From Squalus acanthias (lineage: Eukaryota), in contig CM059432.1 in the NCBI GenBank assembly GCA_030390025.1, positions 57,290,001-57,354,000 of the forward strand: DNA of 64,000 nt, written 5' to 3'. A model generated the notes under the pieces. It ran no database searches. It was not told where the DNA came from and saw only the letters and a list, made by a program, of their open reading frames with translations. Of this stretch, positions 2,746 to 20,777 are shown in pieces. Position 1 is the first letter of the stretch, and every line of letters starts with the position of its first letter. The position numbers and the translations under genes were made by a program.

Positions 2746-3540
2746 TCACGTCTTCAGCTTTGTCTTTTACTTTCACCAATTTCTTCCTTTTTACATATGT
2801 GTAAAAGCTCTTACATTCTATTTTTATATTTCTTGCTAGTTTACTCTCATATTCTATTTTCTCCCTCTTCAGCACTTTCTTGGTTATCCTTTACTGATTT
2901 TTAAAACCCTCCCAATCCCCGTGCTTACTACTCTTTTTGGTTACTTTGTAAGTCTCTTCTTTAATCTAATACTATCCTTAACATCATCAGTTAGCCATGG
3001 TTGTACCACTTTTCCAATGGAGTTTTTATTCCCCAAGTGAATGTATATTTCTTGAGAATTATGAAGTATTTCCTTAAATGTTTACCATTGCTTATCTACC
3101 ATCATATCTTTTAATCTATTTTCCCAATCTACCTCAGCCAACTCGCCTCTCATAATACCTCTGTAATTGGCTTTGTTTAAATTTAGGACCCTAGTTTCCA
3201 ACTTAACCACATCACTCTCAACCTTAATATGAAATTCTATCATATTATGATCACTCTTCCCCAGTGAAGCCTTTACTATAAGATTACTAATTACTAATTA
3301 ACCCTGTCTCATTACATAATACTAGATCTAATATAGCCTGTTCCCTAGTTGGTTCCTCAAAATATTGTTCTAGAAAACTGTGGTCAATTTGCCCATCCTC
3401 CCTGCAATCTTTGTTCTCAACCACACCAATAGCAAGTACCTCGTACCTGTTGGACAATGGCAAAGGCTGATGTTCCTCCACCACTGCATCTGAGGTCCCC
3501 TTACCTGCCTGAGTCGCAGTCTTATCCTCCAAATCTAACC

Positions 3541-5429
3541 AAAAAACAACAGTCATCATGGGTGACTTTAATCTACATATAGATTGGGCTAACCAAATTA
3601 GTAACAATACTGTGGAGCAGGAATTCCTGGAGTGTTTACGGGATGGTTTCCTGGACCAATATGTTGAGGAACCAACCAGAGATCAGGCCATCTTAGACTG
3701 GGTATTATGTAATGAGAAAGGATTAATTAGCAATCTTGTTGTACAAGGCACCTTGGGTCGGAGCGATCATAATATGATAGAATTCTTCATTAAGATGGAG
3801 AGTGAAGTAGTTGACTCAGAGACTAGGGTCCTGAATTTAAATAAAGGAAACTACGATGGTATGAGGCACGAGTTGGGTAGGATTGATTGGGGAATGTCAC
3901 TCAAAGGGTTGACAGTGGATAGGCAATGGCAAACATTGAAAGACCGCATGGATGAACTACAGAATTTGTTCATCCCAGTTTGGCATAAGAATAAAACAAA
4001 AATGGTGACTCAACCATGGCTAACAAGGGAAATTAGGGATAGCATATGATCCAAGGAGAGGACATATAAATTGGCCAGAAAAAGCAGTAAACCTGAGGAT
4101 TGGGAGCAGTTTAGGATTCAACAAAGGAGGACAAAGGGATTAATTAAGAAGGGGAAAATAGAATATGAGAGGAAGCTTTCAGGGAACATAAAAACTGACT
4201 GTAAAAGCTTTTATAGATATGTGAAGAGAAAAAGATTGGTGAAGTCAAGTGTAGGTCCCTTGCAGTCAGAATCAGGGGAACTTATAATGGGGAACAAAGA
4301 AATGGCAGACCAATTAAATACATATTTTGGTTCTGTCTTCACAAAGGAGGACACAAATAACCTCCCAGAGATGTCAGGGAACATAGGGTCTGATGAAAGG
4401 GAGGAACTGAAAGAAATCAGTATTTGTAGGGAAATGGTGTTAGGGAAATTGGTGGGATTGAAGGCCGATAAATCCCCAGGGCCTGATAATCTACATCCTA
4501 GGGTACTTAAGGAAGTGGCCCTAGAAATAGTAGATGCATTGCTGGTCATCTTCCAACATTCGATGGAATCTGGAACAATACCCATGGATTGGAGGGTAGC
4601 TAATGTTACCCCACTATTCAAAAAAGGTGGTAGAGAGAAAATGGGGAATTACAGACCGGTAAGCCTGCCATCGGTAGTGGGGAATATGCTAGAGTACATT
4701 ATAAAAGATGTAATAGCAGAGCACTTGGAAAACAGTGACAGGATCGGACAAAGTCAACATGGATTTACAAAAGGTAAATCGTGCTTGACTAATCTACTGG
4801 AATTTTTTGAGGATGTAACTGGTAAAATAGATAAGGGAGAACCAGTGGATGTGGTGTATTTGGACTTTCAAAAGGCTTTCGATAAGGTCCCGCATAAGAG
4901 ATTAGCGTGTAAAGTTAAGGCACATGGGATTGGGGGCAAGGTATTGACTTGGATAGAGAACTGGTTGTCAGACAGAAAGCAAAGAGTTGGAATAAACAGG
5001 TCTTTTTCCGAGTGGCAGGCAGTGACTAGTGGGGTACCGCAGGGATCGGTCCTTGGACCCCAGCTATTCACAATATATATTAATGGTCTAGACAAGGAAC
5101 TAAATGTAATATCTCCAAGTTTGCAGATGACACAAAGCTGGGTGGGTGTGTGTGCTGTGAGGAGGATGCCAAGAAACTCCAGGATGATTTGGACAGGTTG
5201 GGTGATTGGGCAGAAGCATGACAGATGCAATATAACATGGATAAATGCGTGGTTATCCACTTTGGTGTCAAAAACAGGAAGGCAGATTATTATCTGAATG
5301 GCAATAGATTGGGAGAAGGGGAAGTGCAATGAGACCTGGTGTCCTTGTGCACCAGTCGCTGAAGGTAAGCATGCAGGTGCAGCAGGCGGTTAAGAAGGCA
5401 AATGGTATGTTGGCCTTCATAGCGAGAGG
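3541..5429 (+). mobile_element. CR1 LINE ORF2 pseudogene, 5' part; target of the LTR element
   Basis: Endonuclease motifs MGDFN and SDHN; RT motifs YRPVSL, YLDFQKAFD, GVPQGSVLGP. Cut at ..FIAR|G by the LTR element and resumes at 20147. Confidence 0.95.
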
Positions 5430-7063
5430 TGTAAGGGGTGACCTGCGGCTCTGTGCTTAGCCTGGGTGCTAGTGCGGGGTTAGGCCTTGTTGCCTGCTCT
5501 GGTCTCCAGCCAGCCTGGTAATACTAGACACCTGTGAGTGGTTCGACCCACTCGCCCTTACGGTTCTGACACTGGACTTAGGTGCGAGAGCAATAATGCA
5601 GAGAAGACTCAGGTAGACCCGGTTGAATATGCGAAATGGAAAATCTTTATTGCATATTATTCAAGATTACGAGATACATGTCATAAGCACAGATTAACGA
5701 CAGTACAATCTTACACACAGTTATGAAACTAATTTTAGGGAAACGAGGAGCGCACGACACATCGTAAAAGGGGACACACATTATAATTATCCTTAAAACT
5801 TAAACCCTCCCCTATCAATACCTGTCCTAATCTAGATTTGTAGGATCGAGACTCATGCTCACCACTCGGGACAATTCGGAGGATTCTAAATCGATGTTCG
5901 GATGCTTTCGCCACCGCACCTGACCACTCACGTGTTGGTCAAGGGTCTCTGCGCCTCACTTGTTTACTCGTTTCTGCTCCGGCTAGTAGGCTGGACCGCC
6001 TGCGGCCATGAAGATCTGTGTTGGTTTTCAGAGTTCGGACACCCCTCAAAGAAGAGTCTTCCTGTGCCCTCACCGGTTCGATAGAACTCGAAGAAGGGTC
6101 TTCCTAGGCCAGTTGTGGAGTAGCCGATAAAATTCGAAGAAGTGTTTATTCGACTTACAGGTGCGGTCGGGGCTTACTGACCGTGGCGATACGTATTGTC
6201 GTCTTCTTCTCTTCTCATCTCATCTCATCTCATCTCATCTCCTCTCGGGCCTTCGGTTCCAACACCGTTTACCGACTTCTCGGGATGGTGCGCCCGCTTC
6301 CAGGCCTCACAGCCCAGTTCTCCACAGATCTTTGCGGCAAGCCACGAGGTTGATCCTAGCGGATCAGAGTCCAGAGCCGTCAGGCAAGAGAATAAAAGTT
6401 CAGCAGCCTTCCAGCGAGTCAAAGCAGCAAGAGAAAGATGGACGGTTGTACCTTACAGTTATAGTGCTGTAATTCCTCTTTTCCCGCCCAATCTTAATGT
6501 CTATCTTTTGTCAGGGTTTTGGCGCTCAAACTTCTTGTATGGGGTGATCTCAGTCTTTAATGGGTTTCGGTGACACTTGTAACTGTCTGAGTACCCGTTA
6601 ATATTTCTCCCATTGTGGAACCGGCTAGTAGTCTCCCTGGAGGGGTTTTGGGGCTTCCAAATGCTTGCTGTGAGTACCCGCAAACGACTCTCTCATCGTA
6701 GAGTCGTGGGGATTTTGCATATTAATGTCTTTGGATGGGTCCTTGATCGCTCAGTACAATAGCCCTTGTTTGCACCTGGGAGACCGATTTCAGTATTCAT
6801 GTTTAAAGTGTAAACCCATCGTGTCTTGTCATTATCTCATCATGTTGGATCTTTTCGATCTTGCACAAATGTTTATTGGAACGCCATCTTGTCTGCCTAC
6901 TGAAAGTCTAGAACTTTCTGCCACGAGGTGTGGCGGCCATTTTACAGGCTGTTTGTGTCCATTTTGAAACCTGACAGCATTCTGCTGAAATAAAGCTGTT
7001 TATACGAAACTTTATGTCTCCTTCTTATTTTTATAAAATCGCGATAATTTTGCGAATTCTACA
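5430..7063 (-). repeat. 3' LTR (1634 bp)
   Basis: Direct repeat of 18513-20146 at offset 13083. Minus-strand AATAAA at 5646-5651. Internal (CTCAT)n tract near 6213-6242. Confidence 0.97.
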
Positions 7064-7075
7064 GTCCCTCCTGTT
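7064..7075 (-). promoter_or_regulatory. Polypurine tract
   Basis: Minus strand AACAGGAGGGAC directly abuts the TG of the 3' LTR. Confidence 0.6.
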
Positions 7076-7412
7076 GATGCGAATAACTCCGCTTATCATA
7101 TCAAAAACATTGTGGTGAGCAATATTATCTCGATTCTCCATATCCAAAAATTCCCATAACTTAAAACTATCTCGGGTCTCCGTGTCGTCCTTATTTCCCA
7201 GGAAAATTACATTCTTATAACACCATAGACAGCATTTGCCTTTAACTTACACCGCGTGTATTTCCTTCCAGGTGTAACCAGGCCGATGCCTCTCGCACCA
7301 CCTGCATATGCATATTTTTTTTATTCAAGGAAAAAGAAAACAAAAAACAACCAAACAAATCATATTCAACAACACCAAACCAAAATAATCAAAACCAACT
7401 CTTAAACATGTA

Positions 7413-8305
7413 GGGGTAAAAATTAGGTCGCGCCCCATTTGGGGCGCAAATATCGTCTGGACGCAAATATTAGCGCCTGCCGCTAATTATCGGCACTGAC
7501 TGGAAACTTCACTTTTACCGCCCCGGGAGGTGAGTGGAGCGCTAAATCAGGCGCTGCACACCTGTCTTAAGGCGCAAAGGCCAAGGAGTGAGGCGCTAAC
7601 TCAGAGCGCTGGCGAAGCTCATGTAATGTCAGTCAGCAATGGAACACACACACAATGGCACGGGCCAGTTCTTAAAGGGGATGGTTAATCTTGCTTTCCA
7701 TCCACATCCTGTTCATTGCAGCCTTGAATCTCGGCCTGGAGAGACTTGCACATCAAATGTGCTGGAAAGAACAATGGAGAGTACCAGGCAAAGAGCTCAG
7801 AGTGCAGCTCCCACAGTCTCTGCTAAATCGATACAAGGAATGGCAAATCAAAATGAACCTGCAAAGTGCTGCTCAGTACCCAAAACTCCTTCACACAACA
7901 TTGAATCTCTCCAGAAGTCTCTCCCTCTCTCTCTCAGAATGCGTAGTTCAAAAATGCCACCAACAATAAAAGACAGGAAGAGGCCCCCTTTAAATAGCGC
8001 CCCCCCCAGCCCCACAGCGATTGATAGCGTTCCAGTCTTCTGGTCGTTGGATGCGCCAGGCGGTAAGGCAGGGGGCGCCACTCAATTTCCGCTCCGGGGC
8101 GCCACAAGGGCGTTGCACCATGGAATGACGTCATAATCTGCGCACGCAGGTGGTCGCAGCGGTAAGTTTTAGCGCCGCCGCACAATCTCTAGTTAAGTTC
8201 CCGAGCGGCGCAACCATCGCTGCGCCCGGGCGTTAGCGGCTTTGCGCCCCATTAGCGCCCTCTTAAGGCGCTAACGGGAGGCGCAACCAACTGAATTTTT
8301 ACCCC
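7413..8305. mobile_element. PIF/Harbinger-type MITE inside the provirus 3' region
   Basis: Terminal inverted repeats (TIRs) GGGGTAAAAATT and AATTTTTACCCC; 3-bp TSD GTA (7410-7412, 8306-8308). Confidence 0.85.
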
Positions 8306-8407
8306 GTAGAGTTCCAAACTTAATTACAGTTTCTGAGAAAAATCACGATCAATTACAACACTTCCGAGGCGCACGTGGAAAAACTGGAGTGACGCCATTT
8401 TGTCCGT

Positions 8408-10554
8408 TTACGCGGTGCTTTCATCGTGCACGCGCACGTAACGTTCTCGCCACTCTCCCGTGTTTTCGTTCTTGGTGAGGCGTTTGCCTCTCTTACAGTG
8501 TATGACCAATAAGTATATCACAATAAACACTTGGCATACAACTAAAATGTGGGAGGCTATTCTAATCCAGGAAGGCACTTCAATGTTGGTGAACAGATCC
8601 CACCACGGTGGAATTACTATGTCTAGAATTTCCGTCCCTATCTCGACAGTCTTTTGTTCTAGGGTGTAAAAATGTTTTTGCGATACCGCGACGGCTTTCA
8701 AAAGCTTGGTGAGGTGTTCAGGGAGAGGGGGAATGAGGTATCCGAAATGCGCGACGAATCGCTGTAAGTCGGTGAAGTTCTCTTTTACTGTAAGATGAAC
8801 AGTGGATGGTTCAGGGATCGGGACAATTCGCTGTTGTGCCACTTGAACTTCCGCCCTGGGTTTAAAACAGAAACTGCTGTCACTCACCGGACACCGGCTA
8901 CGGTTTCCATGCTGGTAGTGTTGCGCTGCAGTGGTAACACAATATGTTCCACCCCCGATGTATGCTACCTGCGGAGGCACATGATCTTGTGCCATTGCCT
9001 CCATGGTGCAATTCATGGGCTTGGCGCCAGCCGTTCTGAACCCGCACTGTGGTGTTAAAAAGGCATTCAAGTGCTGGGGACACAGTATTATGTGTGCTCC
9101 CCGGCCACGACAACCAGAGAGATCTGTACCTGTCATCGTTTGCTCCCAGCGGATGACGTAAGGTGGAACCACTGCATAGCGAATGTGGGCTCCCCCCTGA
9201 ATGACACCAATGTTCTCTACCCGATACACCGGGGCGGGCTTTGCTGTGTCGCCCAAAACCGGCATACGTAATACTATACCCATGATGGTGTGGTTTGATC
9301 GTCCGCAGTCCACGGGGACTGGGTATGCTTCTGAAGCTAGCCTGAGCTGGCACGGGCTTAATGCGTTCTGAAAAGGGTGGAGCGCCTGCAGGTGTTTGTT
9401 ACTTATCCAGGACGGGACCAAACCTTGTTTTAAATCCTCCAAATTACTGCGGTCCTCGCCCAGTAACCACGCCCCGTAAAGCACGCACACCTCGTTCTGC
9501 GCAGTCTGATCGGACGCATTCCGATCTTCCCTAATCAGGGCATTTACCGTACGCGCATGTTTCTCTAGTTCAGCTATTATTTCTTTTAAATGGAGAGTCA
9601 TGGCCTGGTCCTCGTGTAACCCAGACCCAACCACCTTATTTTCATCTGTGAGAATATTCTTTAATTGTGTTTTTAAGCCATTAATCTGGGTCTGCAGCTC
9701 CACGCTGTCTAGAGCGTTGACCACAGATGTACCTGTATTGAAAGCAGTGAACATGTCGTTCACAACACCCCTTCTTTGCCTCCCTACCTGACCCAAAACT
9801 TCATGTGGTGCGGTGTACAAACTTGTTTTATCAATTTCCGCGAAATCGAACTCATAAAATTGCCTAAACATCTTGGTCAACAGGACCTGATATAACTGTT
9901 CCGTCTCTTTGGGGCACCACTCCGGCAACCGCACCTCGGTGAGGTTTAAAATCACCGAGGCCACCGCGTAATGTACCCCCTGAAATAGTATCTGGTCTGT
10001 AGGGACCAATACCAAACCATTCCCGGGTCCCTTACTGGTTTTTGGGCACCCTTCTTCCTTAGCTAGAACCACCGGAATTGTGGGCGGGGCCTTGCGTGGG
10101 CGCGTAATGAGTTCAGTGGCATTTACCGGGATCGAAGAGTATGGAGCTCCGCACCCCCTGGTGCTCGCATCCCACCTCATCCCCTGCCCGTTATCCTGCC
10201 ATTGATTGATGAAAAATATGGAGATGCCTTTGGGGCAAACTTGCTTTGACCCCCACATACATACATAAATTCCCTCATCCGGTTCCCACCATTTGTCCCA
10301 ACAGACTCTCACTTGTCCGTTTGTCCCCGTAATTGTCCGATGGGTATTATTACCCAGTCGCTCGCACTCAACCGAAGAGTTCCTCATGTTTTTGCTCAGC
10401 TTTCGCAGCCACCACCATCGGCTCAATGGGACATTCCCATTACAAGTCAAACAAATCCGTTTGCCGACGGTGACGCTGACTCTGGGTGCGATGATCCTCA
10501 CTTTGGGGCACATTAAAGAAGTCTCTTTGTAGGCAAAACCCGATGTACTGGAAT
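8408..10554 (-). CDS. env: Envelope glycoprotein, C-terminal 714 aa: Ig-like domain plus F-like class I fusion protein (gene split by CR1)
   Basis: Ig motifs VSVTVG..CLTC, W, DEGIYVC; furin site RQRR (9770-9781); fusion-peptide/heptad region GVVNDMF...LQTQINGLKTQLKNIL; long Cys-rich segment; second heptad; PPWWDLF; TM ILVVCQVFIVIYLLVIHC; basic cytoplasmic tail. Confidence 0.85.
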
Positions 10555-10557
10555 ACT

Positions 10558-10830
10558 CAGCGTCGACAGTGGGGGAGGAGGAGCCTTTCTTTCTTTCTCT
10601 CTCCCACAGAGCGGTCGGCAGCGGGGAAGGAGGGGCGGACCTGGTTGGAGCGGCAGAGGCCTGAGGTGAGTCATTAAAGGGAGGCCCGAGGCTCAGGTAG
10701 GCCTCAGACCAGCGTCGACAGCGGGGGAGGAGGAGCCTTTCTTTCTTTCTCTCTCCCACAGAGCGGTCGGCAGCGGGGAAGGAGGGGCGGACCTGGTTGG
10801 AGCGGCAGAGGCCTGAGGTGAGTCATTAAA
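10558..10830 (+). repeat. 152-bp tandem monomers (about 1.8 copies) at the CR1 5' end
   Basis: CAGCGTCGACAG...GGTGAGTCATTAAA starts at 10558 and again at 10710, near-identical. Confidence 0.9.
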
Positions 10831-11115
10831 CTCACCTACGTGGCCTTTTTCCCCAGCGGGGAAAGAGCTTCGCGGGCTTTTTCAAAGGCAGGGGGCGGGG
10901 CCAATTCATTGGTACCCGTATATAGGTGGAGCGGTTGCTAAACCCGAGACACTAAACTAGTAGTGACTCCCACCCTCCCACCTCCTCTAACCATTAGGGG
11001 TAGAGGGAATTTAAAAGGTAGGTTCGATTTTATATTTTGTTTTCAGGGACTTAACTCCTGGACCTAAGATAAATAAGTTTAAATTTTAGTAATAAAGTAA
11101 CATAAGGGTTAAGTC

Positions 11116-12060
11116 ATGACAGGAAGTCTCGGACCCGTTTCATGCTCCTCCTGTGCCATGTGGGAAACCAGGGACACTTCCAGTGTCCCTGACAACTACG
11201 TGTGCGGGAAGTGTGTCCAGCTGCAGCTCCTGACAGCCCGCATGGCGGTGCTGGAGCTGCGGGTGGACTCACTCTGGAGCATGCACGATGCCGAGAACTC
11301 GGTGAATCGCTCATTTAGTGAGTTGTCCACACCGCAGGTAAAGGCTAGGACAGACAGTGAATGGGTGACCAAGAAGCAGGGCAATATCAGGAAGGTAGTG
11401 CAGGAGTCCCCTGTGGTCATCTCCCTCCAAAACAGGTATGCCGCTTTGGATACTGTTGGGGGAGATGGCCTACCAGGGGAAGGCACTAGCAGCCAGGTTC
11501 ATGGCACCATGGCTGGCTCTGCTGCACAGCAGGGCGGGAAAAAGAGTGGTAGGGCTATAGTGATAGGGGACTCAATTGTAAGGGGAATAGACAGGAGTTT
11601 CTGTGGCCGCAACCGAGATTCCAGGATGGTATGTTGCCTCCCTGGTGCAAGGGTCAAGGATGTCTCTGAGCGGCTGCAGAACATTCTGAAGAGGGAGGGT
11701 GAACAGCCAGCTGTCGTGGTGCATGTAGGTACCAACGATATAGGTAAAAAGCGGGAAGAGGTCCTACAAGCAGAATTTAGGGAGCTAGGAGCTAAATTAA
11801 AAAGTAGGACCTCTAAGGTAGTAATCTCTGGATTGCTACCAGGGCCACGTGCTAATCAGAATAGAGAGAACAGGATAGTGAGATTGAATACGTGGCTTGA
11901 GCAGTGGTGCAGGAGGGAGGGATTCAAATTCCTGAGGCATTGGAATCAGTTCTGGGGGAAGTGGGACCTGTACAAAAGGGACGGTCTGCACTTGGGCAGG
12001 ACTGGAACCGATGTCCTCGGGGTAATATTTGCTAAAGCAGTTCGGGAGGATTTAAACTAA
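11116..12060 (+). CDS. CR1 ORF1p (zinc finger, leucine zipper, SGNH/GDSL esterase-like domain)
   Basis: CSSC...CGKC; heptad leucines; IVIGDSIVR, CLPGA, HVGTND and DGLHL esterase blocks. Confidence 0.92.
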   Translation: MTGSLGPVSCSSCAMWETRDTSSVPDNYVCGKCVQLQLLTARMAVLELRVDSLWSMHDAENSVNRSFSELSTPQVKARTDSEWVTKKQGNIRKVVQESPVVISLQNRYAALDTVGGDGLPGEGTSSQVHGTMAGSAAQQGGKKSGRAIVIGDSIVRGIDRSFCGRNRDSRMVCCLPGARVKDVSERLQNILKREGEQPAVVVHVGTNDIGKKREEVLQAEFRELGAKLKSRTSKVVISGLLPGPRANQNRENRIVRLNTWLEQWCRREGFKFLRHWNQFWGKWDLYKRDGLHLGRTGTDVLGVIFAKAVREDLN

Positions 12061-12107
12061 TATGGCAGGGGAATGGGAACCTATGTAGCGAAACAGGGGG
12101 AAGTAAT

Positions 12108-15044
12108 ATGCAGTCAGAAACAAATGTTAGAAGGGTGAGAAACAATAGGGGAAGGCCGAGTAAACAAAGGCAAGAAACACAAAGGGCCATACTAAATCAT
12201 AAGTCTAAAAGGACAAAGGATGTTAATAAAACAAGCCTAAAGGCTCTGTGTCTTAATGTAAGGAGTATCCGTAATAAGGTGGATGAATTGACTGTGCAAA
12301 TAGATGTTAACGGATACGATGTGATTGGGATTACAGAGACGTGGCTCCAGAACAATCAAGGCTGGGAACTGAACATCCAGGGGTATTCAACATTCAGAAA
12401 GGATAGAATAAAAGGAAAAGGGGGTGGGGTAGCATTGCTGGTTAAAGAGGAGATTAATGCAATAGCTAGGAAGGACATCAGCTTGGAGGATGTGGAATCA
12501 ATATGGGTTGAGCTGCAGAACACCAAAGGGCAGAAAACGTTAGTGGGAGTTGTGTACAGACCTCCAAACAGCAGTAGTGAGGTGGGGGAGGGTATGAAAC
12601 AGGAAATCAGAGGTGCGTGCAAAAAAGGCACGGCAGTTATCATGGGTGACTTTAATATGCATATAGATTGGGCTACTCAAACTGGAAGCAATACGGTGGA
12701 GGAGGATTTCCTGGAGTGTTTAAGGGATGGTTTCCTAAACCAATATGTTGAGGAACCAACTCGAGGGGAGGCCATCCTGGACTGGGTGTTGTGTAATGAA
12801 GAGGGACTAATCAGCAATCTTGTGGTACGAGGCCCCCTGGGGAAGAGTGACCATAGTATGGTGGAGTTCTACATTAGGATGGAGAAGGAAACAGTTAAGT
12901 CAGAGACCATGGTCCAGAACTTAAATAAGGGCAACTTTGAGGGTATGAGGCGTGAATTGGCGAGGTTAAATTGGCAAGCGATATTTAAGGGGCTATCAGT
13001 GGAAGGGCAATGGCAGACATTTAGAGATCGCATGGATGAACTACAACAATTGTACATCCCGGTCTGGCATAAAAATAAAAAAGGGAAGGTGGCTCAACCA
13101 TGGCTAACAAGGGAAATCAGGGATAGTATTAAAACCAAGGAAGTTGCATACAAATTGGCCAGAAGTAGCAGCAAACCCGGGGACTGGGAGAACTTCAAAA
13201 CTCAGCAGAGGAGGACGAAGGGTTTGATTAGGGCAGGGAAAATAAAATATGAAAGGAAGCTTGCAGAGAACATTAAAATGGACTGCAAAAGCTTCTATAA
13301 ATATGTAAAAAGAAAGAGGTTAGTAAAAACAAACGTAGGTCCCCTGCAGTCGGAAACAGGGGAAGTCGTAATGGGGAACAAGGAAATGGCAGATCAATTG
13401 AACAAGTACTTTGGTTCGGTGTTTACTGTGGAGGACACACACAACCTGCCGGAAATAAAAGGGGTCAGAGGATCTGGTAAGAGGGAGGAGCTGAGGGAAA
13501 TCCTTATTAGTCGGGAAAAGGTATTGGGGAAATTGATGGGACTGAAGGCTGAAAAATCCCCGGGGCCTGATGGTCTGCATCCCAGAGTACTTAAGGAGGT
13601 GGCCTTGGAAATAGTGGATGCATTGACGATCATTTTCCAACATTCCTTAGACTCTGGATCAGTTCCGATGGAGTGGAGGGTGGCCAATGTAACCCCTCTT
13701 TTTAAAAAAGGAGGGAGGGAGAAAGCAGGGAATTATAGACCGGTCAGCCTGACATCGGTCGTGGGTAAAATGATGGAAGCAATTATTAAAGATGTCATAA
13801 CAGACCATTTGGAAAGTGGTGACATGATAGGTCCAAGTCAGCATGGATTTGTGAAAGGGAAATCATGCTTGACAAATCTTCTGGAATTTTTTGAGGATGT
13901 TTCCAATAGGGTGGACAGGGGGGAACCAGTAGATGTGGTGTATTTGGACTTTCAGAAGGCCTTCGACAAGGTCCCACACAAGAGATTGGTGAGCAAAGTT
14001 AAAGCACATGGGATTGGGGGTAATGTGTTGACGTGGATTGAGAACTGGTTGGCACACAGGAAACAAAGAGTAGGAGTAAATGGGTACTTTTCAGAATGGC
14101 AGGCAGTGACCAGCGGGGTACCGCAGGGTTCGGTGCTGGGACCCCAGCTGTTTACATTATATATTAATGATTTGGACGAAGGGATTAAATGTAATATCTC
14201 CAAATTTGCGGATGACACTAAATTGGGAGGCAGTGTGAACAATGAGGAGGATGCTAGGAGGCTACAGAGTGACTTGGACAGGTTGGGTGAATGGGCAAAT
14301 GTATGGCAGATGAAGTACAATGTGGATAAATGTGAGGTTATCCACTTTGGTGGTAAAAATAGAGAGGCGGACTATTACCTGAATGGTGGCAGATTAGGGA
14401 AAGGGGACGTGCAACGAGACCTGGGCGTCATGGTACATCAGTCACTGAAGGTGGGAATGCAAGTGCAGCAGGCAGTCAAGAAAGCAAACGGAATGATGGC
14501 CTTCATAGCAAGGGGATTTGAGTACAGGAGTAGGGAGGTGATGATACAGTTGTACAGGGCTTTGGTGAGGCCACACCTGGAGTATTGTGCGCAGTTTTGG
14601 TCTCCTAACTTAAGGAAGGACATTCTTGCTATTGAGGGAGTGCAGCGAAGGTTCACTAGATTGATTCCTGGGATGGCCGGACTGACATATCAAGAAAGAT
14701 TGGGTCAACTGAACTTGTATCCTCTGGAGTTCAGAAGAATGAGGGGGGATCTTATAGAGACATTTAAAATCCTGACTGGTTTAGACAAATTAGATGCGGG
14801 CAGAATGTTCCCAATGGTAGGGAAAACTAGAACCAGGGGTCACAGTCTAAGGATTAAGGGGAAGCCATTTAGGACTGAGCTGAGGAGGAACTTCTTCACC
14901 CAGAGAGTGGTGAATCTATGGAATTCTCTTCCACAGAAGGTTGTTGAGGCCAGTTCGCTAAATATATTCAAAAGGGAGTTAGATATAACACTCACAACTA
15001 AGGGGATCAAGGGGTATGGCGAGAAAGCAGGAATGGGGTACTGA
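12108..15044 (+). CDS. CR1 ORF2p (APE endonuclease plus reverse transcriptase), intact, 978 aa
   Basis: LNVRS, ITETW, YRPP, GDFN, SDH; RT motifs YLDFQKAFD, GVPQGSVLGP, FADD. No stops; frame is open from 12051. Confidence 0.97.
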   Translation: MQSETNVRRVRNNRGRPSKQRQETQRAILNHKSKRTKDVNKTSLKALCLNVRSIRNKVDELTVQIDVNGYDVIGITETWLQNNQGWELNIQGYSTFRKDRIKGKGGGVALLVKEEINAIARKDISLEDVESIWVELQNTKGQKTLVGVVYRPPNSSSEVGEGMKQEIRGACKKGTAVIMGDFNMHIDWATQTGSNTVEEDFLECLRDGFLNQYVEEPTRGEAILDWVLCNEEGLISNLVVRGPLGKSDHSMVEFYIRMEKETVKSETMVQNLNKGNFEGMRRELARLNWQAIFKGLSVEGQWQTFRDRMDELQQLYIPVWHKNKKGKVAQPWLTREIRDSIKTKEVAYKLARSSSKPGDWENFKTQQRRTKGLIRAGKIKYERKLAENIKMDCKSFYKYVKRKRLVKTNVGPLQSETGEVVMGNKEMADQLNKYFGSVFTVEDTHNLPEIKGVRGSGKREELREILISREKVLGKLMGLKAEKSPGPDGLHPRVLKEVALEIVDALTIIFQHSLDSGSVPMEWRVANVTPLFKKGGREKAGNYRPVSLTSVVGKMMEAIIKDVITDHLESGDMIGPSQHGFVKGKSCLTNLLEFFEDVSNRVDRGEPVDVVYLDFQKAFDKVPHKRLVSKVKAHGIGGNVLTWIENWLAHRKQRVGVNGYFSEWQAVTSGVPQGSVLGPQLFTLYINDLDEGIKCNISKFADDTKLGGSVNNEEDARRLQSDLDRLGEWANVWQMKYNVDKCEVIHFGGKNREADYYLNGGRLGKGDVQRDLGVMVHQSLKVGMQVQQAVKKANGMMAFIARGFEYRSREVMIQLYRALVRPHLEYCAQFWSPNLRKDILAIEGVQRRFTRLIPGMAGLTYQERLGQLNLYPLEFRRMRGDLIETFKILTGLDKLDAGRMFPMVGKTRTRGHSLRIKGKPFRTELRRNFFTQRVVNLWNSLPQKVVEASSLNIFKRELDITLTTKGIKGYGEKAGMGY

Positions 15045-15143
15045 GGTAGCATGTTCAGCCATGAACGCATTGAATGGCGGTGCAGGCTCGAAGGACCGAA
15101 TGGTCTACTCCTGTACCTATTTTCTATGTTTCTATGTTTCTAT

Positions 15144-15340
15144 GAATTCGTTCCCAGCCATCCTGGCCACCTTCCCTTGTGGAAATAGGTGGTGGTCTCC
15201 TCAGCCTCTCGCCTTCCGGTCCCATCCACCGCGATGGGGGCCGTGTCCCCGGAGCATCCAAACACCACGACATCCTTGGTGCGGCCTCGATAGGCCAATC
15301 CACATCCAAATGCCGCGAGCACTACCAGAATCCGTTCCAT
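15144..15340 (-). CDS. env: Envelope glycoprotein N-terminus with signal peptide
   Basis: MERILVVLAAFGCGLA after a strong Kozak ATG (aggATGg). Joins the C-terminal part in frame as ..WLGTNS|STSGF.. once the CR1 and one GAAT copy are removed. An upstream in-frame ATG exists at 15451. Confidence 0.8.
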
Positions 15341-15642
15341 CCTTCCTTGGTTCCTGTGATCAGATAGAATGAGGTAGCCAGCCTCCCAAGAGTCTCTGGC
15401 TTTTGTGAAGGGTGAGCGGGTCCCCTGACCTCGCCTCACGTAAGAAGACATGTGCGCTGGATAGACTTTAACTATTCCTATTTCTAACTCCCATCATTTT
15501 ACCATTTTCTGTTAAAAAATTAAACTACAAACTTAACCTGATTTAAAACTATAAACTTAAACTTATAAACTTATAAACTCATCCTAAACTTATCACTTAT
15601 CTTAATAACTGTAGAGTGCCGCCCGTTCCCAGGGCGGCCTAC

Positions 15643-16685
15643 TCAAATTCTGCGGTTGCTGCCGCAGGCTTCTCCCAACGGTGGGAGGGCATTGACCCCT
15701 CCCTTTGATCTGCCGCAGCCTGTTGCTGCTGCGCTGTGACTGGGCTCTCCCTGGGCTGCCTTAGCCCTGGGCCTACGCTTAGGGACATACGGGGGACTTA
15801 CCCACATCTTTCTGGGCTGGGGTTTCCGACTTGACCTACGGGGAACTACCGGGGGCAGGAACTCCAGGACTGACGGACCGGGTTCCGAGACTTCCACCGT
15901 GGCGACCTGTGGTCCCACCACAGTCGCTGGCTCCGCCTCCCCTAACTCCGCCTCCCTGAACTCGGGATCTGCAGCTTGTGGCACCACCCTACTTGGCCCA
16001 GTAGGCGGCCCTTCACTCGCAGTCCCTACCTCCCTCGAGGGCAAGACGTTCAAGGCGGGCGGCTCGGGCTCTGAGGCTTCCATCGCCACGCCCTGTGGTC
16101 CCACCACAGCGCTGGCTCCGCCTCCCCTAGCTCCGCCCCCCTGCGTTCGGGACCTGCAGCTTCGGCCTCCACCCTGTGTGGATCTCTATCTGCAGCCCCT
16201 GTCTCCCCTATACCTGAATCGGGGGCGACCCTTTCGTCCTCCGATTCCAGCTCCTCTTCGCTTGTGTCACTATCTTGGTCGAGCTTCTCGAACTCTTCCT
16301 CATCTGGCTCCCAACCCAAATAAAGGATCCTACATTTTGCTAGGATGTCCTCTCCCCTGATGCAGGCTGCTTTGCCTGCCTGTGTGCCCTGTGGCCCTAC
16401 CCGGGGCTGCGAGTCCCCACTCGCAGGTTTGGCCCCTGTGGTTGGCCCTTGTGCACCCGGCTTATGCAGTTTGCACTGATTAAAATCCTCATACTCCCTG
16501 CTTCTGGCTACCCTGTAGGCTGCCTTTATCTCTCTAAGCTGCCCTTCTAGCACGTCTATTTTTCCCATTAAACGGGCGTTCTCCTCCCGCAAGGCCTGCT
16601 CTTTTAACCTGGCCTCCTTACAGGAGACCCCCTCCTGTGCGTTTCTTTTAAAAGGACACAGGTAGGCAGGCTGCGTGGGCTCTAG
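15643..16685 (-). pseudogene. Non-pol ORF in the gag readthrough frame (Gag-like coiled coil, acidic stretch, Pro/Glu repeats); one 1-nt frameshift; about 347 aa if repaired
   Basis: In frame with gag after TGA-CTAG. ORFs 16050-16592 and 15643-16107 join when the base missing at 16109/16110 (present in the sister repeat) is restored. Confidence 0.7.
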
Positions 16686-18508
16686 TCATTGGGTACTGTT
16701 GGACGGGGCTGCGGCATCTGCGGGGCCGGTAGCGACTGCCACCCTTCCTTGCGAAATCATGAGGGTGCGCATGGCTCCCAACATTGATTCGATCGCATCG
16801 GGATGGATAGTTGCACCAGCTCCCCTATCAGAAACAGGCGCCTAGGCTCGGACTGCGGGATTTTTATCCCTGGACTCCTTCCAAGGATTCCTGCAGTTCT
16901 TGCGCCAGTGCCCTGTCTTTCCGCATCCGAAACAAGCATTACTGGCCTGTGGGACGCGATTTCCCTCCTGATGCCACTCCTTTTGAGCCGGGGCTGTGGG
17001 CCGCGCCTCATGCACCTTTCCCTTAAGGGGACGTGCTCCCGTACTCCTGGTATTACGGTACCCTACCGTGAGTCGATTTAGGACCGACTCCTCTGTAGTG
17101 GCGGGGTTAGTGGGATCAAACCACGCTTTGGCCTGCTCCCTGACGGCTGGCAAACTGTTGGCTACTACACACCTGAGCCAATGAGTTAAACCGACGCCGT
17201 TCAAATAGGCGCGCTCTGGCGCACCTGGGCAGCTACGCTGGTATACTGGCCACAGCCTGTCGGCGAAAACCTTCGGGGGTTCTCCCTCCATCTGCACTGT
17301 TTGTCCCAATCTAACGAACGGACCTTCATCGTCCGCTCCCAACACTTCCAGGACCTCGTCCCTCAATTCCCCATAAGTGTTATTTCCCCTCTTGCTCTCG
17401 TCTGAGAGACACTGAAGGATCGAGCTGTCTAATGAGAACAACAGCATTTTTGCTTTTCCCCCATCGTCGCAGCCGTTAATGGCTGCGGTTTGTTCTACCT
17501 CCCTGAAATGTATGGAAGGGTCGTCTGACTCGGACAGCTTCCGTACGTGACTGATCATAGCCCTCAGCTGGTGTGAGCTGTGAGGCAACACAAGCTGGTT
17601 GAGGAGATTCCCCGCTTCCCCATCGTCTTTGTTCGGGCCCCTTTTGATACCCGTAACCGGACACAACGGTCCCGGCTTCACTTCTACCTCAGGGGGCTGT
17701 ACTACCTCGGGGACCTCTTCCTCTACTTCTACCACTTCCTTCCTTACCCAGGTTGCCGAATAGCTGGGTGGCGCGGAGGGCACAGTGGCAAATACCTCCT
17801 CTGCCTTGTTCGGTGGGGATTTCTGAAATTCCCCACCCACCAGCGGCTGGTGTGCTGACGGGCTGATAAGGCACACCATGCCGTGCGCTTTATTCAGGGC
17901 CTCTTTAAGGTTCCCTATCTCTCTTTGGCAGACGCTGTGATCGGCCCCCTCATGTTTATCCTCGAGGGCCATCTTATATGCCGCCCTAACCCCCGTTAAG
18001 CTCTCTTCCTGGGCTTTTATTTGGGCAGCTAGGCGGGCACATCGTTCCTTTATTCTGCCCTCATTTAACTTTGCCTCAGTGACCTGGCACTCGAGGTAAT
18101 CTATTTTCGCCTCATGGTGGTTGGCGACTAACTGGCGTTCTTGATGCAACGCATTTAAAGACGCGATGAGCTGCTGCCCCCCCGCGACCTTCTCGTCCAT
18201 TTCCACCTCTAAACCCTTGATCTGAGCTGCCTGCGCTAAGATGACCTGGTCCGAAAACTGGACTTGTCTTTTATAGCACATCAGCCAGACCGCTTTCTCT
18301 ACTGTTCTTTTATGTTCCTTGCTACCTGTCCACCTCACGGCTGCCTCTAGTGGACGCTTATCCACCAGCAGGTCACTTATCCATTTCTTAGTGAAATTCA
18401 CTTTTCCAAACACATATCTGCTATTCTCTCTTCCATAACATTTCGCCCATTCATACCAGGGTCTAACACATTATTTTCTCGCTGCCAGTGTCCCTTCGTG
18501 GTCGCCAT
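16686..18508 (-). pseudogene. gag: Gag (coiled coil, capsid-like region, CCHC zinc knuckle); about 607 aa if repaired
   Basis: CFGCGKTGHWRKNC knuckle. The ATG at 18508 opens MATTKGHWQRENNV...MCLEK, one base out of frame with ORF 16842-18413 near 18402-18405. TAG at 16842-16844 is followed by 51 open codons to TGA at 16686-16688. Confidence 0.82.
18490..18507 (-). promoter_or_regulatory. Primer-binding site, tRNA-Arg(TCG)
   Basis: TGGCGACCACGAAGGGAC, 5 nt inside the 5' LTR; complementary to the vertebrate tRNA-Arg(TCG) 3' end ...GTCCCTTCGTGGTCG-CCA (recalled sequence). Confidence 0.85.
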
Positions 18509-18512
18509 TATC

Positions 18513-20146
18513 TGTAAGGGGTGACCTGCGGCTCTGTGCTTAGCCTGGGTGCTAGTGCGGGGTTAGGCCTTGTTGCCTGCTCTGGTCTCCAGCCAGCCTG
18601 GTAATACTAGACACCTGTGAGTGGTTCGACCCACTCGCCCTTACGGTTCTGACACTGGACTTAGGTGCGAGAGCAATAATGCAGAGAAGACTCAGGTAGA
18701 CCCGGTTGAATATGCGAAATGGAAAATCTTTATTGCATATTATTCAAGATTACGAGATACATGTCATAAGCACAGATTAACGACAGTACAATCTTACACA
18801 CAGTTATGAAACTAATTTTAGGGAAACGAGGAGCGCACGACACATCGTAAAAGGGGACACACATTATAATTATCCTTAAAACTTAAACCCTCCCCTATCA
18901 ATACCTGTCCTAATCTAGATTTGTAGGATCGAGACTCATGCTCACCACTCGGGACAATTCGGAGGATTCTAAATCGATGTTCGGATGCTTTCGCCACCGC
19001 ACCTGACCACTCACGTGTTGGTCAAGGGTCTCTGCGCCTCACTTGTTTACTCGTTTCTGCTCCGGCTAGTAGGCTGGACCGCCTGCGGCCATGAAGATCT
19101 GTGTTGGTTTTCAGAGTTCGGACACCCCTCAAAGAAGAGTCTTCCTGTGCCCTCACCGGTTCGATAGAACTCGAAGAAGGGTCTTCCTAGGCCAGTTGTG
19201 GAGTAGCCGATAAAATTCGAAGAAGTGTTTATTCGACTTACAGGTGCGGTCGGGGCTTACTGACCGTGGCGATACGTATTGTCGTCTTCTTCTCTTCTCA
19301 TCTCATCTCATCTCATCTCATCTCCTCTCGGGCCTTCGGTTCCAACACCGTTTACCGACTTCTCGGGATGGTGCGCCCGCTTCCAGGCCTCACAGCCCAG
19401 TTCTCCACAGATCTTCGCGGCAAGCCACGAGGTTGATCCTAGCGGATCAGAGTCCAGAGCCGTCAGGCAAGAGAATAAAAGTTCAGCAGCCTTCCAGCGA
19501 GTCAAAGCAGCAAGAGAAAGATGGACGGTTGTACCTTACAGTTATAGTGCTGTAATTCCTCTTTTCCCGCCCAATCTTAATGTCTATCTTTTGTCAGGGT
19601 TTTGGCGCTCAAACTTCTTGTATGGGGTGATCTCAGTCTTTAATGGGTTTCGGTGACACTTGTAACTGTCTGAGTACCCGTTAATATTTCTCCCATTGTG
19701 GAACCGGCTAGTAGTCTCCCTGGAGGGGTTTTGGGGCTTCCAAATGCTTGCTGTGAGTACCCGCAAACGACTCTCTCATCGTAGAGTCGTGGGGATTTTG
19801 CATATTAATGTCTTTGGATGGGTCCTTGATCGCTCAGTACAATAGCCCTTGTTTGCACCTGGGAGACCGATTTCAGTATTCATGTTTAAAGTGTAAACCC
19901 ATCGTGTCTTGTCATTATCTCATCATGTTGGATCTTTTCGATCTTGCACAAATGTTTATTGGAACGCCATCTTGTCTGCCTACTGAAAGTCTAGAACTTT
20001 CTGCCACGAGGCGTGGCGGCCATTTTACAGGCTGTTTGTGTCCGTTTTGAAACCTGACAGCATTCTGCTGAAATAAAGCTGTTTATACGAAACTTTATGT
20101 CTCCTTCTTATTTTTATAAAATCGCGATAATTTTGCGAATTCTACA
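18513..20146 (-). repeat. 5' LTR (1634 bp)
   Basis: Copy of 5430-7063, adjacent to the PBS. Confidence 0.97.
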
Positions 20147-20777
20147 GAGGGTTTGAGTACAGGAACAAGGATGTCTTGCTGCAGTTGTACAGGGCCTTGG
20201 TGAGACCACATCTTGAGTATTGTGTGCAGTTTTGGTCGCCTTATCTGAGGAAGGAGGTTCTTGCCATGGAAGGAGTTCAGCGAAGATTCACCAGACTGAT
20301 ACCTGGGATGGCAGGAATGACGTATGAGGAGAGATTGGGTCGATTGGGCTTATACTCGCTGGAGTTTAGAAAAATGAGAGGGCATCTCATTGAAACTTAT
20401 AAAATTCAGACAGGACTGGACAGACTAGATGCAGGAAGGATGTTCCCGATGGTCGGGGAGTCCAGAACCAGGGGTCACAGTCTAAGGATAAGGGGTAAGC
20501 CATTTAGGACAGAAATGAGGAGGAATTTCTTCACCCAGAGAATGGTGAACCTGTGGAATTCTCTACCACAGAAGGCAGTAGAGGCCAATTCATTAAATAT
20601 ATTCAAGAAGGAGGTGGATATATTTCTTAAGGCTAAAGGGATCAAGGGATATGGAGAGAAAGCAGGGACAGGGTTCTGAATTTGGATGATCAGCCATGAT
20701 CGCATTGAATGGCAGAGCAGGCTAGAGGGGCCGAATGGCCTACTCCTGCTCTATCTTCTATGTTTCTATGTTTCTAT
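20147..20777 (+). mobile_element. CR1 ORF2 3' part and tail (continuation of 3541-5429)
   Basis: GFEYRNKDVLLQLYRALVRPHLEYCVQFWSP; (TTTCTATG)n tail. Confidence 0.95.

Follow-up and report, generated by a model that had tools for sequence, protein, structure and literature searches.

Retroviral deletion forms that move in trans are already known. Chicken EAV-HP and koala recKoRV keep their gag and env flanks, have pol deleted or replaced, and spread with a helper; we know of no in-frame, selected filler in either. Mouse intracisternal A-particle (IAP) 1Δ1 elements are an abundant, non-autonomous deletion form, mobilised in trans by full-length siblings, and their in-frame fusion of Gag to a Pol remnant is reported to act in cis (PMC6466679). 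The zebrafish BHIKHARI family, as described in PMC12067270, has pol-less non-autonomous members, including Bik-2 with gag only, and its Bik element is without env. The provirus examined here is a variant on this theme. It lies in a 64,000-nucleotide stretch of the spiny dogfish (Squalus acanthias) genome (assembly GCA_030390025.1, contig CM059432.1, 57,290,001 to 57,354,000; hereafter the window), and it carries gag, env and, in the place of pol, a second open reading frame (ORF2). Relative to IAP 1Δ1, gag is whole and env retained, a fusion protein would require stop readthrough, a Gag-like coiled-coil filler stands in place of the lost part of pol, and the cassette recombines across two backbones. 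Neither the family nor its layout turned up in a literature search, subscription papers and Repbase being outside its scope.

The window copy is itself a dead member of its family. None of its three ORFs is intact: a premature stop interrupts gag, the frame of ORF2 is shifted, and a CR1 element splits env. The form to which it belongs is a stable, non-autonomous version of a large gag-pol-env retrovirus family, without enzymes, with intact cis signals, and with many independent insertions and close pol-bearing relatives. Other copies do not all carry pol: the pol-less form occurs at no fewer than 59 loci. Many of these have their own separate 4-bp target duplications, indicating insertions made by integrase. 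As originally predicted, gag is present and the element's own ORFs hold no protease, reverse transcriptase (RT), RNase H or integrase. In a motif scan of the element, protease, YxDD and RNase H motifs were all absent; pattern matches to LPQG, GPY/F and HHCC-like motifs fell within gag or env, within the CR1 or on the other strand; and a Pfam scan of the element's own ORFs returned no pol family, the sole RT match being the nested CR1.

Pol-bearing siblings are abundant and closely related. The gag search gave 3073 first-look candidates, from which the best 40 matches, all at least 94% identical, were listed. The best 40 gag matches on the window's backbone (A) comprised 27 pol-bearing copies, 11 pol-less copies including the window and 2 unclassified loci. 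Those on a second backbone (B), with LTRs (long terminal repeats) about 71–75% and gag 81–89% identical to the window, comprised 22 pol-bearing, 17 pol-less and 1 partial; seven of these matches coincide in position with loci from the filler search. Together these best 80 matches contain 49 copies with full pol, 28 pol-less copies with the same cassette and 3 unclassified, and 28/80 is not a genome-wide ratio because both gag queries, with 40 best matches each, were pol-less copies. A filler query yielded 1432 first-look candidates and an RT query 2323; neither figure is a copy number. Among the best 40 matches to the filler, none of the 38 loci examined had a pol core within the element. A sibling Pol runs for 1496 codons in the gag frame and holds protease, RT, tether, RNase H and integrase (a dual RNase H arrangement). 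The claim that the element was copied in trans by a pol-bearing helper fits these data well, since helpers with the same primer-binding site exist, the nearest being 99% identical in gag; on the gag tree the window's closest relatives are two pol-bearing copies, at 99%. Among 34 pol-less copies covered end to end, long frames are present for gag in 19, ORF2 in 20 and env in 14, with all three in 3. Two loci of unusual structure are probably nested or tandem insertions: L008 (sense 8206-9999) has gag and a broken pol, then a second CCHC-bearing ORF with no tail or env, and the match at L011 ends directly after the pol start.

ORF2 was originally described as a non-pol ORF, a description that does not hold. 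Aligned with pol-bearing copies, the window matches over the first ~10 pol codons, is interrupted by a gap, and matches again near the integrase end, which Pfam places at about residue 1223 of Pol in a pol-bearing sibling; the DNA of the Pol tail is 91–99% identical to pol-bearing group A copies. By these alignments ORF2 consists of about ten pol codons, a filler similar to the coiled coil of Gag, and the tail of Pol, all in the gag frame; some five-sixths is pol remnant, and only the 172 nt at 16482-16653 are foreign to pol. The filler translation (57 residues) is a coiled coil that shares 35–47% identity with the coiled coil in Gag of the same family, with a score reached by 0 of 2000 heptad-preserving shuffles, and had no match below E 3 to the 112 other proteins compared. 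No donor of the filler was found among 143 candidates in a homologue search with the first 140 residues of ORF2, and the second family with an F-like Env in this genome gave no match to the filler or Gag coiled coil in the 2 of its 66 loci examined. A splicing origin of the pol deletion was ruled out, as the cassette edges in a pol-bearing copy are not GT..AG. In independent public runs that bear two other organism labels, contigs span one cassette junction or both, and one contig has a +69 variant of the cassette; these contigs hint at a wider host range, the organism labels being unchecked. One public run, guessed to be RNA and possibly DNA, covers the cassette stretch.

Trees were built from gag (110 segments), the tail (104) and env-Ig (immunoglobulin-domain; 101), and they show that the cassette moves between backbones. 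Well-supported branches force at least 11 changes of pol state on the gag tree, 8 on the tail tree and 8 on the env-Ig tree. The backbone assignment (A or B) changes 1, 1 and 2 times on the same trees, with a clean single split in gag and tail. These are quick trees supported by SH-aLRT only, and the three unclassified loci were labelled pol-bearing in the counts. RT is 96–98% identical across backbones A and B, and the A–B synonymous distance of the filler (0.14) is lower than that of its flanks (0.21–0.57); both central cassettes, pol and filler, have therefore crossed backbones. The cassette is present on both backbones and, judged from these trees, switches between them repeatedly.

The reading frame across the cassette is well conserved. 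The gag/pol junction is TGA-CTR in 104 of 105 copies and pol continues in the gag frame. UGA-CUA(G) is a readthrough signal, and readthrough of the gag TGA, as originally predicted, is plausible. A search for a stem-loop after the stop gave no clear structure (fold z −1.8, 11 of 200 shuffles, and −0.8). The cassette is in phase in 53 of 58 pol-less copies, the five out-of-phase ones each being single copies, and 52 of the 53 in-phase cassettes have no stop over the ~83 codons tested. All five derived length classes found in at least two copies (−9, +36, +60, +69 and +174) are multiples of three, for which the chance is 1/243 if they are independent.

The filler also shows signs of selection at the protein level. 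Its ratio of nonsynonymous to synonymous change (N/S) is 0.39 in frame, 0.48 in the antisense mirror frame and 0.82–1.66 in the remaining four frames, a pattern that env shares; a non-coding control gave 0.66–1.08. After exclusion of five segmental duplicates, codon positions 2 and 3 require 42 vs 82 parsimony steps (p 0.0004), and 39 vs 71 after removal of CpG columns (p=0.0016), the control being flat (92 vs 88). Unlike the tail, the filler thus appears to be under protein-level constraint in most tests, and any such constraint acted in pol-less genomes, since the filler is found only there.

Taken as a whole, these data are probably best explained by a dead copy of a stable pol-less form that carries a filler cassette, is copied by helpers and swaps backbones. 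Particles would take up the pol-less RNA along with RNA from pol-bearing siblings, which would supply protease, RT and integrase in trans, and template switching would move the cassette from one backbone to another. The at least 11 changes of gag background point to such co-packaging and recombination, which we regard as very likely to have occurred. Readthrough of the gag TGA would also yield a Gag-filler-tail protein that could act in cis, bringing its own RNA into helper-built particles like the IAP 1Δ1 fusion, and the frame and filler residues would be kept for this reason. We lean slightly towards this step, of which frame conservation and codon-position bias are indirect signs. A bolder formulation, which we consider less likely than not, is that the cassette is a long-lived selfish module, akin to a defective interfering genome, that captured a second Gag-type coiled coil and hops between helper backbones. 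Produced by readthrough where Gag-Pol would otherwise be made, this coiled coil would help its RNA to enter helper particles. The host virus would be an undescribed early branch of retroviruses proper, with a retroviral RT, an RNase H near foamy/loki and an Ig-headed F-type Env.

Several observations weigh against this interpretation. The pol-less share of the best 80 gag matches is biased by the pol-less queries and the best-40 lists. Six filler loci are probably host segmental duplicates of one insertion: L024, L025, L027, L028, L030 and L033, all pol-less, have a common 5′ truncation and an expanded Pol-tail repeat region, and the two that were checked have an identical flank. A stricter count of letters common to at least two copies gave 11 vs 16 in the filler (p=0.44); only 56 filler codons were tested, in copies related to one another; and the Pol tail showed no residue-level constraint once CpG columns were removed. 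Low N/S of gag and env in pol-less copies may also be inherited from pol-bearing backbones through recombination.

Some of these points would suit a passive defective form, in which the cassette spreads only because a shorter genome that retains its cis signals is efficiently packaged and copied, and the ORF2 protein is inert. The frame would then be kept by tolerance, frame-broken or toxic readthrough products being weeded out, or by constraint on the RNA. An unconstrained tail and the non-significant shared-letter test are expected of such a form, and the RNA after the stop does fold slightly better than shuffles. However, the position bias in the filler tracks the reading frame and survives CpG removal, and inherited length changes keep the frame in every case, so that we consider a passive form less likely than not.

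The original prediction cast the element as envelope-supplying, with a pol-bearing helper copying it in trans. A division of labour with a helper that lacks env gains something from the conservation of env in pol-less copies (N/S 0.10–0.17 in the F part) and from the long env frames noted above. It is nevertheless very unlikely because the helpers have env, which is present in 12 of 12 classified pol-bearing loci among L001–L020, and because copies of like pol state do not cluster on the env-Ig tree (279 of 500 shuffles scored as low). Moreover, env-Ig N/S is the same in pol-bearing and pol-less copies, and the window's own env is split.

The Env model resembles the fusion (F) proteins of paramyxoviruses. 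Its pLDDT (predicted local distance difference test) score is 63, mostly above 70 in the F core, and Foldseek matched it at E 1e-10 to F proteins of paramyxo- and pneumoviruses (human parainfluenza virus 3, Langya virus and respiratory syncytial virus). Among the predicted structures of BFVD, it matched Env of two epsilonretroviruses, WEHV-1 (E 2e-9) and WDSV (E 1e-8), and feline foamy virus Env. Foamy Env is described as an F homologue in PMC11468914. Since foamy and epsilonretrovirus Envs also match F, an F-like Env is not diagnostic of lokiretroviruses, and the initial view that such Envs are confined to loki- and errantiviruses must be abandoned. The F part of the predicted Ig-F env was borne out, and its N-terminal Ig head is probable: Pfam Ig_3 matched at E 0.036, and weak Ig matches occur in 3 of 10 homologues. 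Residues 1–165 (the Ig part) of the full model have pLDDT below 50. A separate Ig model (pLDDT 40) had no Foldseek match at E<=0.001, although all 50 matches listed are Ig V domains.

Lokiretroviruses (PMC7947760) share with this family an F-like Env with a cleavage site (RQRR here, of RXKR type in lokiretroviruses) and transmembrane helix, a coiled-coil Gag, and a protease-RT-tether-RNase H-integrase Pol, the last common to all retroviruses. They differ in RT placement, in the Gag CCHC knuckle found here (Pfam E 0.0024, below the curated cut-off), and in the probable Ig head of Env. That a lokiretrovirus reached cartilaginous fish, with ORF2 as its "smc"-like coiled-coil gene, is highly unlikely, despite the dual RNase H and some affinities within Pol. 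Against snakehead retrovirus (SnRV), loki proteins score higher both in the tether, at 40% identity, and in integrase, at 243 vs 131 bits; the RNase H tree puts the family as sister to foamy plus loki (99/96), outside loki and with a long-branch warning; and the integrase tree does not reject a shark-plus-loki clade (p 0.46). However, the helper RT falls inside retroviruses proper (99/99), a shark-plus-loki clade is rejected (approximately unbiased test, p-AU 0.0057), RT identity is 45% to SnRV, the highest found, vs 31–34% to loki, the tether is the first branch on the retrovirus side (94/92), and ORF2 is mostly pol remnant. By the RT test that defines lokiretroviruses, as a clade sister to all other retroviruses, the family is not one of them; it is placed instead as a deep branch of retroviruses proper, its sister group a polytomy (p-AU 0.38 for SnRV, 0.13 for foamy and 0.47 for gamma/epsilon). 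An extension of the loki host range is thus unsupported, given this RT grouping; the original statement that this range held no cartilaginous fish agrees with Wang & Han (PMC7947760), where none is listed as a host and none of the six chondrichthyan genomes found in Table S2 is starred.

In these trees the labels gamma, epsilon, foamy and gypsy are our own assignments from genome length, Pfam content and tree position, not record names. Three of the four loki references (P0006–P0009) contain a motif that occurs 28 times in the PMC7947760 supplement and the fourth groups with them; the SnRV reference (L073) was identified by a motif match to the "SnRV" row of that supplement; and rows P0029, L095 and L097 were left out of the RT references. 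Errantivirus, a Ty3/gypsy group with env, was ruled out, as gypsy rows form the RT outgroup (100/98) and the siblings' Pol has dual RNase H. Foamy viruses resemble the family in the F fold of Env (PMC11468914) and in an RNase H of the same broad group. Membership in Spumaretrovirinae was rejected on the CCHC knuckle, in-frame pol and tRNA-Arg primer found here. Foamy viruses have a Gag without zinc knuckle, pol expressed separately from gag, a tRNA-Lys primer and, like this family, a 4-bp target duplication. SnRV, also from a fish, likewise has a single stop between gag and pol, which share a reading frame, but that stop is TAG rather than TGA, its primer site matches at only 11 of 18 positions, Env similarity is absent (BLASTP E 0.13), Gag similarity is confined to the knuckle, and its RNase H groups elsewhere. 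Lineage I of the elephant-shark CmiERV elements reportedly groups with SnRV (PMC4422223); in a text search across line breaks, itself weak, the primer and stop motifs were both absent from the supplement to that paper.

There is a negligible chance that the form goes back to a single rearrangement, to segmental duplication in the host or to an artefact of assembly, for beyond the six truncated loci there are dozens on many chromosomes with distinct flanks and duplications, and independent public runs bridge the cassette junctions.

The features of the window copy are collected in Table 1; the predicted LTRs, target-site duplication, tRNA-Arg primer site and polypurine tract were all found in the sequence. 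The host site is an older CR1 (3513-5429, continuing at 20147-20679). The three mismatches between the LTRs are each a CpG transition within the 3′ LTR. At an annual 2.2e-10 substitutions per site, the rate assumed in PMC4422223, the divergence gives an age of ~4 million years (Poisson range 0.9–12), lower if CpG sites mutate fast. The primer site complements, at 18 of 18 positions, the 3′ end of a tRNA-Arg(TCG) gene from the same genome with CCA added. The 5-nt spacer between LTR and primer site (18508-18512) is kept in 17 of 20 testable copies; the SnRV record has 1 nt.

Table 1. Features of the provirus and its nested elements, in window coordinates
Feature	Position	Strand	Remarks
Target-site duplication GAGG, left copy	5426..5429	+	
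3′ LTR	5430..7063	-	1634 bp, TG..CA ends; carries all 3 inter-LTR differences
Short polypurine tract	7064..7075	-	purine-rich
Nested MITE (miniature inverted-repeat transposable element)	7413..8305	.	893 bp, in 3′ untranslated region (UTR); terminal inverted repeats, 3-bp target duplication
env, main part	8408..10560	-	RQRR cleavage site ~9770-9781; F-like fusion core
env transmembrane helix	~8490-8570	-	
Probable V-type Ig domain of env	~10260-10510	-	
Nested full-length CR1-type LINE (long interspersed nuclear element)	10561..15147	+	ORF1 SGNH esterase, ORF2 endonuclease-RT (EN-RT); splits env
N-terminal env piece	15148..15343	-	hydrophobic signal-like start; joined to remaining env in other copies
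Post-integrase tail of Pol	15643..16481	-	acidic stretch, repeats, basic end; frameshift near 16110 in window copy
Filler, 172 nt	16482..16653	-	replaces protease-to-integrase portion of pol; without DNA match in pol-bearing copies
pol start, first ~10 codons	16654..16685	-	common to pol-bearing copies
gag	16686..18470	-	N-terminal coiled coil, capsid-like region, one CCHC knuckle
Family gag stop TGA	16686-16688	-	TGA-CTR context
Premature gag stop, window copy	16842-16844	-	
Primer-binding site, tRNA-Arg(TCG)	18490..18507	-	5 nt from LTR
5′ LTR	18513..20146	-	1634 bp, TG..CA ends
Target-site duplication GAGG, right copy	20147..20150	+	

The CR1 inside env is ~4.6 kb long, and its site is empty in every other copy spanning that position. 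Its ORF1 and ORF2 are both open and it has a 121-bp near-perfect 5′ duplication; it is apparently a young LINE. The MITE, which we take to be Harbinger-like, belongs to a family found at the same 3′ UTR site of the endogenous retrovirus (ERV) in 6 of 111 loci, the window copy together with L044, L038, L151, L152 and L023. These copies lie in both orientations and as variants 86–98% identical, and the family occurs further within an LTR in two loci and in flanking DNA in one. The recurrent position suggests a target hotspot, or a MITE carried along by the ERV.

Relatives of the structural proteins occur in other hosts. Named Env homologues at 51–75% identity come from skate and sawshark, and weaker ones from other sharks and frogs. 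The sawshark models "Niban 1-like" and "zinc finger ZFP2-like" (P0003 and P0004) contain pieces of this Env, through either mis-annotation or exonised env. The frog Mantella has a distant Env homologue (677 residues, 19%) with 16 near-identical annotated members (the P0093 cluster), which suggests a related, recently active family. In the ESM Atlas, Env matched one chordate cluster at 0.83, a lead only, and the clusters closest to Gag are retroelement Gag, at 0.92. A second abundant ERV family in the dogfish genome (L154, L155; 66 matches) also has an F-like Env, 33–48% identical to a Mustelus protein and ~30% to the Env described here; its RT is 48–56% identical (one locus).

Pol-less ERVs are usually viewed as passive debris. 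Here, in contrast, the same backbones retain a central cassette that exists in two states, pol or filler, and the sole sequence unique to the defective state shows signs of coding constraint. If this reading is true, it would provide genomic evidence for a defective retroviral genome that evolved its own protein for a cis advantage, to our knowledge otherwise known only from IAP 1Δ1. It is also clear from the helper family that an F-type fusogen does not mark out lokiretroviruses, and the family adds a deep chondrichthyan branch with which one can ask whether an F-type Env is ancestral in retroviruses.

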